Below, in pieces: positions 47,422 to 64,000 of a DNA stretch of 64,000 nucleotides (positions within the stretch are counted from its first letter, which is position 1; each line of letters starts with the position of its first letter). The notes under the pieces are model-generated. The model had not been told where the DNA came from, searched no databases, and saw only the letters and a list, made by a program, of their open reading frames with translations. This DNA comes from a virus, in the IMG/VR virus record IMGVR_UViG_3300027747_003534, positions 1 to 64,000 of that record; one strand, 5' to 3'. A program made the position numbers and the translations under genes.

Positions 47422-50400
47422 ATGAGCAAAGGATTTAATCTTACAGCAGAAATCAACTTGCGCGGTCCTTCAAATATAAGGACTGTTGTTGCGGATATTC
47501 GCAGGCAAATTGGATCTGTATCCGCAGATATTACTCCGGTAGTTACTAGACAATCTGTCCGTAATGTTGCTAGTGTAATAAGAAGTCAGCTGTCTAATAT
47601 AATATGTGATGTTAAGATCAAAGCCAATACATCATCATTAAGAAGTATTGGATCAGATATAAGAAGACAGTTAAGTGGGGTTAGTGCTAATATTAACGTT
47701 AGGGCCAATCAGTCATCAATAAGAACAATGGCGGCTGACATCAGAAGACAATTAGGATCAATTAATGCTAATGTTAATGTTAGATTCAATACTACTGCTG
47801 TTACAACATATAGTAACAATTTAAGAGGATTAAATGCTAATCTTAATCAGATAATAACCTCAGCCACCAATGCTACAGGAGCCATCAATGCTTTAGCTGC
47901 TGCAATGAGAAGTGCATCAGCTGCTGGATCGGCTATTAATAATACTGCTATAAATGTTGGAAATGTTAGCAGGGCTGCGAATAATACTAGAAATAGCATT
48001 ACTCTAGCATCCAATGAAATGGTAGAGTTTGGTCGTCAATCCGGCTTAGCATTTAGAAGATTTTCAGCTATTACAACTGTTACAAGTGTTATATATGGAT
48101 TAACAAATGCTGTTAGTCAGGGTGTTAAATCTTTTATAGATTTTGATTTGCAAATGACTCGCATATCTCAGGTAACTGGTGATTCAAGAAATAAATTAGC
48201 TGATGTGGCAAATACTATTACAGATTTATCTACTAAACTTGGTGTTTCTTCTAATGAGCTAACAACTACCACAGTAACTCTTGCACAGGCTGGTTTAACG
48301 GCTAAAGATACTGCTACGGCGCTCAAAGCTTTGGCTCTTAGTGCATTAGCTCCATCATTTGATGATATGAATCAAACTGTAGAAGGATCTATTGCTTTAA
48401 TGAGACAGTTTGGTATAGGAGCAAATCAATTAGAAATGGCACTAGGTAGTGTTAATGCTGTGTCTGCTAAGTTTGCTGTTGAAGCTAGTGATATTATTAC
48501 TGCTATTCAGCGTACTGGTGGTGTGTTTGCTGCTGCTAGTAGAGGAGTAAGCACAGGCACAGAAGCATTAAATGAATTTATTGCTGTATTTACCAGTATC
48601 CGAGCTACAACTCGTGAAAGTGCAGAAACTATTGCTACTGGTTTAAGAACTATTTTTACTAGAATTCAAAGAGCAGGAACTATCGAAGCATTACAAGAAT
48701 TTGGAGTTACATTAACTGATTTAGAAGGTAAATTCGTAGGTCCCTATATTGCGGTTCAAAGACTTAGTGAAGGACTAAGCAGATTAGATCCACGAGATCT
48801 TAAATTCTCACAGATAGTTGAAGAATTGGGCGGCTTCCGTCAGATCGGCAAGGTGCTACCACTTATTCAACAGTTCGCAACTGCTCAAGACGCATTAAAG
48901 GTTGCTCAACAGGGCCAAGGATCATTAGCAACCGACGCGGCAAAAGGACAATTAGCTTTAGCTATTCAGATTCAGAAAGTGAGAGAAGAATTTCTTGCTC
49001 TTATTCGTAGCATTGGAGATACTAGTAGTTTTCAAAATATTGTAAAAGTTGGTTTAGATTTAGCCAGCGCTTTAATAAAGGTGGCTGATGCCACTAAGGG
49101 AGTTTTACCATTATTAACTCTGTTTGCTGCATTTAAAGGAATCACTGCGGCCACTCAATATATAGGTGGTTTTAGTCAAGGAATCAGAGGAAATGGTGGA
49201 GGAGCCAGAAGAGCTAATGAAGGTGGTCGTATATATGCTTTTGCTAGTGGTGGATTAGTACCAGGATATGGAAATGGTGATACTGTATCGGCAAAATTAA
49301 CTCCTGGTGAGTTTGTGATGAGCAAGCCAGCAGCACAAAGCATAGGAGTTGGTAATTTACATTCTTTGAATAGGAGTCGTGGAGGATCTATATTCCCCAA
49401 AAATTATTATCAGGGTGGGGTTGCAGCTTTAAAATCACTGTCTCCAGGAGAAAGTGGAAATAGAATCTCAGACTATATAGATTATTACGAGAATGAAACA
49501 AGCAAGACCAGCAAACAAAAAACAGGAAGAAAAAATAAATTAAACAGACAATCACCGAAAATGCTTAGAGGTTTTCAGCTCAAAGATAATGTTAATTCCG
49601 ATATAGAGAGAAGAGTTATTGGGGAATCAGAAATAAAAGAAGCTGTTGCAAACAATGCGAATTTTAGACGCTATATTAATAGTAGAGCAGCCAAAGATAA
49701 GAGTAGAGAGTTCTATGCTGCTCAAGGCGTAGCTTTTGAGGAGTTTTTATTTCAACATATTCTTGAGGGAAAACAATATGAAAAAGCACCCAAAAACAAC
49801 TATCCTTTAGATTTTATACCAAAGACTCCCGGATTACCTCCAGTTGAAGCTAAATTTACTTACGAGCAAGTTCCTGATGCATTTATTTTAAACAAACGAT
49901 TAAGATATAACTTATTGCGTCGTAATAACGAAAAAATATCTCCTTTAACCAGGAAGCAGAAACCCGACAATATTCAATTGGGTCCAACAATTGTATATGA
50001 AATGGGACCTGGATTAAAAAACAAAATCTTTACTCCAAACTCAAGTGAAAGCCAAAAAAGAGGAAGAGAAGAAAGAGCTCAGAAGAGTTTATTAAAAATT
50101 GATAAACTTGGTTTAGAACGTAATAATGGTGGATCTATACAAAAATTCGGTATTGGTGGAAGTACTGACGCTATATCAACATATAAAGCAACTTCTATGA
50201 AACTTAATAGAAGTCTAATGCTTGGAACTCCATTAACTAAAGAAGAACAAAAAAATGTTAAAGATTTAAAAAAACAAACCACAGATAAATTACCAAAACA
50301 ATTATATTCTGGTATTGGAGAAAATAGACTCAATCTGATTAAAAATCAAGTTGGCGATAAGCTACCAAAATCGGTTGGCAAATCATTTACATTACCTGGA

Positions 50401-64000: not shown

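Follow-up and report, generated by a model that had tools for sequence, protein, structure and literature searches.

Introduction

Lambda gpH and T5 pb2, the two phage tape-measure proteins (TMPs) that have been studied biochemically, are both cut. In gpH the cut falls close to the C-terminus, within a stretch rich in glycine, and leaves gpH*, which ends at about residues 691-730; the exact site and the protease are unknown (PMC12617516). Residues ~690-817 of gpH are unresolved in the virion (PMC12617516), and its C-terminal residues 818-849 bind gpI. T5 pb2 is cut during tail assembly, after R1127 (PMC10038345), which frees a functional C-terminal piece, pb2C. TMPs with one embedded enzyme motif are already known, pb2 among them, as is the TM4 protein, for which a peptidoglycan-hydrolase motif is reported (PMC1796659). 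Here, these proteins are compared with a giant TMP encoded in IMG/VR virus record IMGVR_UViG_3300027747_003534, along which a Gly-Gly doublet recurs. An original prediction, made from the DNA alone, proposed this doublet as a candidate protease cleavage code at the boundaries of cargo domains. The window referred to below is the first 64 kb of the 161,520-bp record.

The giant gene lies on the + strand at 47422..64000; its open reading frame (ORF) is open at the window end and, in the full record, continues as far as 70806. The encoded protein, of 7,794 residues, has the same sequence as database entry P0002. Judged from its sequence, the product is a cargo-loaded tail TMP. A PhageMin_Tail (TP901-type TMP) domain occupies 48214..48828 on the + strand (aa 265-469), where PF10145 scores 77.5 bits at E 1.7e-21 (cut-off 33.2), several PHROG TMP families match the N-terminal 500-1,100 residues, and the ORF shares tail-gene synteny with relatives.

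A Junction Module Lies Behind the Gly-Gly Doublets

All 12 predicted strings are real: each occurs once, at its predicted nucleotide position, and all lie in one frame of one ORF. The patterns to which they belong are also in clear excess over 500 residue shuffles of the TMP. A box expression (GG, hydrophobic, Q/R/K/Y.., K/R/A.., F/Y/L/A.., x, x, G/A) matches 13 times against 0.25 expected, with at most three matches in any shuffle, and [FYLMW]xxGG occurs 33 times against 8.7 +/- 2.9; GG itself is found 85 times (51 +/- 7 expected). Across 149 homologues the box was observed 602 times, with ~30 expected.

What did not hold is the glycine pair as the unit. Alignment at the sequence level shows the doublets to be the glycine-rich edges of a conserved junction module of ~70 residues, and about ten such modules, together with five isolated boxes, to separate exchangeable cassettes. 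Seven of the 12 strings are N- or C-flanks of modules, five of them in clear copies (49213, 49372, 56773, 59980 and 62908) and two in a degenerate pair (52888 and 53032). The other five (50119, 50653, 51949, 52507 and 53155) are stand-alone N-boxes with the pattern GG-x-I/V-Q/R-K/R-F-x-x-G-G/E, and the one at 53155 closes the degenerate pair.

The module begins with an N-box (GG, two hydrophobics, Y, A, x, x, G), runs through ..L-I/V-x-Y/F-x-P-R/K to the core GTDTVPAMLTPGEFVVN, and continues with x-x-AT-x-x-NLPLL-x-x-IN and one or two C-side GG..Y..GG turns. The core (GTDTVPAMLTPGEFVVN...NLPLL..IN), which is much better conserved than the doublets, had gone unnamed in the original prediction. 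Over 499 copies, drawn from 150 homologues that are cluster representatives at 50% identity, conservation is 90-100% at core positions (100% for G and E, 99% for D, P, A and L, 98% for F and 96% for N), compared with 71-74% for the GG, Y, A and G of the N-box; the C-side glycines vary in position. The strongest constraint therefore acts on the core and not on Gly-Gly, which is conserved in ~72% of copies.

The giant TMP contains eight strong and two weak copies, the final one ending 108 aa before the C-terminus. Copy 1 (49213..49437, + strand, aa 598-672; 27 bits by hmmsearch), which holds the strings at 49213 and 49372, is diverged and lambda-like (..TPGEFVMSK..IGVGNL..). The degenerate pair (52888..53196, + strand, aa 1823-1925), with YAIGG..DTVPALVSNGEAFV.., FAGGG..GTSDSI.. 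and ..KGGAVQRFAFGG, gives a weak hmmsearch match at aa 1831-1877, and 65 alignment starts fall in its 100-aa bin. Strong copies identified by hmmsearch and alignment lie on the + strand at 56608..56823 (aa 3063-3134; 117 bits), 59806..60027 (aa 4129-4202) and 62734..62955 (aa 5105-5178). Beyond the window, the same ORF has five more at aa 6052-6124, 6225-6292, 6939-7006, 7324-7399 and 7615-7686. A six-frame HMM scan of the whole genome found no module outside the giant ORF.

At residues that are identical between copies, third codon positions agree at a frequency of 0.46, the level expected from codon usage alone being 0.47. The copies are therefore old and have been kept by protein-level selection rather than being recent duplicates. 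The identical DNA runs that copies in this TMP share are at most 23 nt long, with a median of 11.

An AF2 monomer model of the module with its flanks (30-row alignment) has a mean pLDDT of 59 and is confident only for GEFV..LPLLHAIN, which forms two short helices. Because confidence is limited to these helices, the modelled module resembles a linear motif and not a domain. The GG boxes, at pLDDT ~50-57, fit a flexible segment, although such values are weak evidence. A LysM-like beta-alpha-alpha-beta fold was considered for GEFV..A....L..L/IN and dropped, as 30 members gave no Pfam LysM signal at E<=10.

Relationship to Lambda gpH and T5 pb2

The closest described counterpart of the module lies in lambda gpH, where ..KFHFATGG..GEFVFTKEATSRIGVGNLYRLMRGYATGG.. 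occurs at ~aa 731-785. Module 1 matches gpH by BLASTP at E 5e-7, and a profile of 138 first modules aligns with gpH 732-785, just downstream of the gpH cleavage region, with an hhalign probability of 96.7% (E 4e-10, 53 columns). Internal modules align with first modules at 99.4%, but directly with gpH at only 7.8%. Profile comparison firmly shows the module to be homologous to that of gpH. Both proteins are TMPs in which an aromatic-A-x-GG box is followed by ..GEFV..K.A....IGVGNL..L.. and a Y-A-x-GG box, and in both the module is placed before the hub-binding C-tail; gpH is cut just upstream of it. The two proteins differ in copy number, lambda having one module and the giant TMP about ten. 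They also differ in subtype, since the internal copies of the giant TMP (GTDTVPAMLTPGEFVVN..NLPLL..IN) are distinct and linked to gpH only through the first-module subtype. In addition, the lambda module parts only the backbone from the tail, whereas those of the giant TMP part enzyme cassettes. The NCBIfam model TIGR01541 (tape_meas_lam_C), which covers this part of gpH and scores the protein at 311 bits, failed at E<=1 to match any of three pieces of the giant TMP that contain modules. No solved chain in the PDB has a modelled module; the best match of module 1 is lambda gpH itself (8iyk_H, E 0.16), with the module region unresolved.

The T5 cut can be placed in sequence at ..NSFVPR / AEGGMMYPGVSYQMGEHGTEVVTPM.., two residues before a GG-hydrophobic-hydrophobic-Y-x-G box. 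By eye, this box is followed by GTEVVTPM, which resembles GTDTVPAM of the module, with GT[DE]xVxPM shared. Unlike the module, however, pb2 is without the ..PGEFVVN..LPLL..IN half and resembles another common TMP element, of the ..GE.G.E..IPL type. This element and the module occur together in the TMP of a Brevundimonas jumbo phage.

Distribution among Tape-Measure Proteins

A profile of nine module copies was searched against 1.84 billion proteins and returned 13,320 cluster representatives at E<=1e-3, of which 752 reached E<=1e-30. The best 150 homologues are 935-7,872 aa long, mostly >2,000, and each has 3-11 module copies; their first module lies at ~aa 520-600, and a median of 144 aa separates the last copy from the C-terminus. 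Some of the short module-bearing fragments come from Tara Oceans samples. Among 50,697 deposited phage genomes, 130 records match the module by tblastn, usually once per genome, and among the matches listed every one in an annotated record falls under an annotated TMP. The hosts of these cultured phages range from Gordonia to Burkholderia and cyanobacteria.

Ordinary TMPs have one module, 60-150 residues before the C-terminus. For example, the Brevundimonas TMP has a single copy near its C-terminus; that of Nodularia phage vB_NpeS-2AV2 has two in tandem in mid-protein (aa 1007-1110). The module of the giant TMP is an iterated form of this single near-C-terminal module. The module is TMP-specific and conserved under protein-level selection. 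No Pfam or NCBIfam model scores it, and two PHROGs do, 35029 (function not annotated) and 25241 (TMP). Two small module-bearing ORFs of long contigs, P0152 and P0164, were considered as natural split forms and set aside; they sit in runs of short ORFs on the same strand and look like fragmented TMP genes.

Cargo Cassettes and Their Exchange

The TMP backbone, which consists of an N-domain, a helical core and a C-tail, is divided by the junctions into cassettes, among them two ADP-ribosyltransferases (ARTs), a HAD-like and a kinase-like candidate and several that have no assignment. The backbone amounts to roughly 1,900 aa; a tail whose length followed all 7,794 aa would measure about 1.2 um at 1.5 A per residue. 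All of the features that follow up to the helical core are on the + strand. ART1 (50161..50652, aa 914-1077), which matches PF03496 in two stretches and phrog_3895, lies directly between stand-alone N-box 1 (50119..50160, ..NNGGSIQKFGIGG) and N-box 2 (50653..50694, LASGGSIQRFMAGE). Cassette X2 follows (50695..51948, aa 1092-1509); it is HAD-phosphatase-like, contains DFDKTL and is present in 44 of 149 homologues. Its Atlas feature matches to viral HAD-like clusters (0.84) are only a lead. ART2 (51991..52506, aa 1524-1695) matches PF03496 at E 1.9e-12 and 47.4 bits (cut-off 23.4), best over aa 1589-1671, and is directly flanked by N-box 3 (51949..51990, YNSGGIIQKFETGG) and N-box 4 (52507..52548, FKNGGNIRRFADAG). 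Thus, the prediction that the motif brackets both ARTs was borne out. The conserved helical backbone at 53197..56607, common to 87 of 149 homologues, includes a Gly-rich hydrophobic stretch at ~aa 2190-2290.

The two ARTs align box to box with 37% identity, flanking boxes included. Both retain STS and E-x-E (EKE, EAE), with LYSG at the R-S-E-type Arg position and its Ser invariant between the copies. An AF2 model of ART2 with both boxes, built from a 2-sequence alignment, reached a mean pLDDT of 34. Searches for ART homologues of near length found none, and those in viral contigs found no ART relatives, only 41 stretches with a match to the box patterns. In other giant TMPs, distant relatives of these ARTs have the same box before or after them (for example ..NRGGKVQNFMAGG.., ..ASGGKAQRFAEGG.. 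and ..LGGLIQRFAGGG..). Farther along, at record positions 67459-68241 (L005:664-1446), a putative small effector kinase cassette (with a G-rich loop, ..VGSGRESMVF..K, and with ..HQGNV.. and ..IDGD) precedes the module at aa 6939. Its nearest Atlas clusters, at 0.90-0.92, are OspG/NleH-type and Kinase-PolyVal families, which are likewise a lead only.

That the motifs stand at cargo boundaries across homologues, and that cassettes are, as a pattern, swapped there, are both supported, because homology with relatives breaks at modules and boxes. The closest relative, P0003, is colinear over aa 1-928 and resumes identity at aa 1080, so ART1 has been replaced there by another sequence between its two boxes. 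Its homology ends again at aa 4199, the end of a module, and resumes at aa 6058 and 7327, where modules start. P0006 and P0008 are without exactly one cassette-plus-module unit, aa 4200-5104; their homology ends at aa 4199 and resumes at aa 5102-5105. When presence was counted at >=50% coverage in the 149 homologues, the backbone parts were widespread (N-domain in 118, helical core in 87, C-tail in 96), and each cargo cassette was present in 1 to 44, in patchwork combinations. The giant TMP has at least ten mutually unrelated cassettes. Among 855 internal endpoints of alignments >=200 aa, 51% lie within junction zones, which account for 13.8% of the protein, a figure that serves as an indicator only, as the endpoints are non-independent.

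Homologous recombination between modules is doubtful, because identical DNA runs between module copies, within and between phages, are short (median 11 nt, maximum 23-29 nt). Short microhomology together with selection for working junctions is the more likely mechanism. These runs also count against a reading in which the repeats are only a recombination scaffold, kept as homology for cassette shuffling and with no role in the protein. Such a scaffold would account for cassette gains, losses and replacements that end at modules and boxes. However, synonymous sites are randomised while the protein is near-invariant, which is the opposite of what a DNA-level signal predicts, and the module is kept in single-copy TMPs too; this reading is very improbable.

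Exchangeable effector domains in MARTX, Rhs and CdiA toxins are bounded by short conserved sequences that act as recombination break points, and in MARTX and Rhs these are also processing sites. MARTX is processed by an internal cysteine protease domain and Rhs by an internal aspartyl protease. The giant TMP would follow the same boundary-motif logic, but the sequences and carriers are unrelated and no such protease is detectable in it. Polyvalent proteins, known from phages and from conjugative elements, offer a second parallel, as one virion-delivered polypeptide holds several unrelated conflict enzymes and processing has been postulated (PMC5512222). The giant TMP has two PF03496 ARTs in one polypeptide, with the kinase-like and HAD-like cassettes as leads only. 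In contrast to the giant TMP, which is without HExxH and has one Cys, polyvalent proteins have their processing assigned to an embedded zincin-like peptidase domain; their description does not mention tape-measure proteins and contains no repeated junction module (PMC5512222).

The 7,794-residue TMP has a single cysteine, at aa 62, whereas other ORFs of the phage with >=200 aa have 1.4% Cys. Cysteine is absent from lambda gpH, from T5 pb2 and from the TMPs of the Nodularia and Brevundimonas phages, and 148 of the 150 giant homologues contain at most two. The Cys-poor state is general among TMPs, cargo included, which is essentially Cys-free. Because all of the cargo enzymes lack cysteine, passage in an unfolded state or via an oxidising compartment is suggested.

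Candidate Proteases and the Role of the Junctions

The adenovirus and African swine fever virus (ASFV) analogy was not supported. It would make the doublets Gly-Gly|X sites, at which a cysteine protease dedicated to virion maturation, such as adenain (adenovirus) or pS273R (ASFV), would act. As in the sites of those enzymes, GG recurs here in a short motif inside a virion protein; it keeps a fixed register in ~72% of the 499 copies, and a hydrophobic or aromatic residue is over-represented three residues upstream (the [FYLMW]xxGG excess given above). However, that residue falls at P5 and not at P4 as in the adenain consensus (M/I/L)-X-G-G|X, GG is not the best-conserved part of the module, and in the one precedent that has been mapped, T5 pb2, the cut follows an Arg and precedes GG by two residues instead of coming after it. 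Nor was a cognate protease recognised. The whole record, from a very divergent genome, gave no E<=1 match to PF00770 (Peptidase_C5), PF02902 (C48), PF03412 (C39) or PF14464 (Prok-JAB), and NlpC/P60 was not found in the entire 161.5 kb either. The 7,794-aa TMP contains neither HExxH nor HxxEH; with this and its one Cys, it has no embedded cysteine protease or zincin. A Pfam scan at E<=0.1 recovered no peptidase family over TMP aa 1-5526, with aa 5527-7794 outside that scan. A dedicated Gly-Gly protease is accordingly scarcely credible as the explanation.

The genome search that the original prediction had called for, for a cysteine or prohead protease, had a mixed outcome. Cysteine proteases of the families named above were not found, nor were prohead proteases of the Peptidase_S78 (HK97-type) or S77 (T4-type) families anywhere in the record. 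The sole recognisable protease is of the ClpP-family head maturation type, at record positions 135044-135721 on the - strand (L009:1447-2124; PF00574 51 bits, phrog_94 E 1.5e-17). Since most tail genes are without a family match, a protease in a form that is not recognisable could be encoded among them. Cleavage without such an enzyme was also considered; 2A-like ribosome skipping and Asp-Pro self-cleavage were dropped, because NPGP is absent and the core lacks D-P.

Two readings of the junctions carry more weight. In the one preferred here, the junctions would be exposed, non-globular segments with the role of processing sites, and a protease without specificity for Gly-Gly would cut each of them at the N-box or immediately before it; this reading of the cleavage step is quite possible, if not altogether probable. 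The position of the cut would be as in T5 pb2 (R1127 / AEGGMMY) and near that of lambda gpH, the enzyme may be a host protease or a phage ClpP-like one, and a polyprotein in the tail lumen would be delivered in the form of individual enzymes. Recognition or docking would then fall to the invariant core, and the glycines would provide flexibility and access. Processing is favoured because the two TMPs with biochemical studies each have their cut next to an element of this kind and because untethered enzymes make functional sense, whereas enzymes with different targets would work poorly when tethered in an 850-kDa chain. The alternative is an uncut structural spacer or docking element, a short linear motif between glycine-hinge flanks that would take up its fold (an extended strand and two short helices) only when bound. 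In ordinary TMPs it would contact the tail-tip initiator, the tail-tube lumen or assembly chaperones; in its iterated form it would maintain the register of the TMP chains, three or six in parallel, between cargo segments that are bulky and probably unfolded, and the entire protein would be ejected as a single thread. A near-invariant 17-residue core is typical of an interface with a conserved partner, every TMP backbone retains one copy just before the hub-binding C-tail, and the AF2 model suggests that the module monomer does not fold on its own. The failure to find a protease and the essentially Cys-free TMPs and cargo, which fit passage as an unfolded thread, favour this alternative as well. 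Against it stand the precedents of cut TMPs and the lack of resolved density for the lambda module region (aa ~690-817) in the virion, where no stable symmetric contact is seen. On this evidence the uncut element is a real but lesser possibility.

Several observations also weigh against processing. No cleavage of the giant TMP or of any multi-module relative has been observed. The T5 cut follows Arg, but the matching position is K/R in only 36% of the 499 copies, and the likeness of the module to pb2 aa 1125-1150 lacks statistical support (hhalign 1.4%, E 0.036). The lambda site is known only within ~40 residues and lies upstream of the module, not inside it. The TMP could not be linked to a protease: the ClpP-like gene is 65 kb away, and none was found among the flanking tail genes or in the neighbourhoods of two relatives. 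Moreover, the near-invariant 17-residue core exceeds the needs of a loose protease site, and docking fits it equally well. Taken together, the best overall explanation combines module edges, iterated gpH-type junctions and putative processing, and we hold it tentatively, at a shade less than an even prospect.

A bolder extension of the processing reading is rather unlikely. It would make the module a portable, self-sufficient signal for processing and hand-over in long-tailed phages, cut beside the GG box either by a host protease of ubiquitous occurrence or in an autocatalytic reaction of the invariant D/T/E/N core. By iteration of this signal, marine phages of a large group would have made the tape measure an injected effector polyprotein from which a dozen separate enzymes are freed.

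Genomic Setting

The gene order upstream of the giant gene is kept in relatives, with five ORFs of ~175, 215, 320, 340-365 and 310-350 aa followed by ones of ~100 and 295 aa. After the giant gene comes a ~1,460-aa protein, which has 574 aa in one of two relatives. Nearly all of the flanking tail genes (window 41715-47335; record 70803-89999), among them those for proteins of 1,462, 1,672 and 2,278 aa, are without a Pfam or PHROG match; current family libraries offer very poor coverage of this phage lineage. The genes at 46101-47335 and 70803-75191 are taken to encode a putative chaperone and a putative distal-tail protein, respectively.

Other features lie farther upstream on the + strand. A second giant ORF, of 4,126 aa (window 22848-35228), belongs to the structural region and is without the junction module. 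Three tandem ORFs of 375-378 aa at window 16452-19851 are possibly paralogues, and the first of them has no clear family match. They are preceded, at window 13299-16448, by a 1,049-aa protein with strong matches to families of collagen-like tail fibres (phrog_819, E 3e-88). On related contigs (L011:3265-4197 and L013:1-1138), proteins with an Mtd_N domain (PF18454) are encoded upstream of the tail module and may hint at targets of diversity-generating retroelements among receptor-binding proteins.

Biological Implications

In a literature search that was incomplete, no prior description was found of a 7,794-residue TMP that strings about ten unrelated cassettes between iterated gpH-type modules, nor of a metagenomic family of at least 750 such TMPs, and both appear to be new. 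For the near-C-terminal module of ordinary TMPs, hundreds of aligned copies now define the residues to mutate. Were the module a portable processing signal of long-tailed phages, it would also explain the lambda gpH cleavage, which has gone unmapped for 50 years. Should the junctions prove to be processing sites, a polyprotein strategy would be the way in which phage tails deliver cocktails of enzymes, and the module would be a natural splice point for foreign cargo in laboratory phage-host systems. If they are uncut, the module is still the clearest marker of where cargo can be inserted into TMPs without breaking tail assembly.

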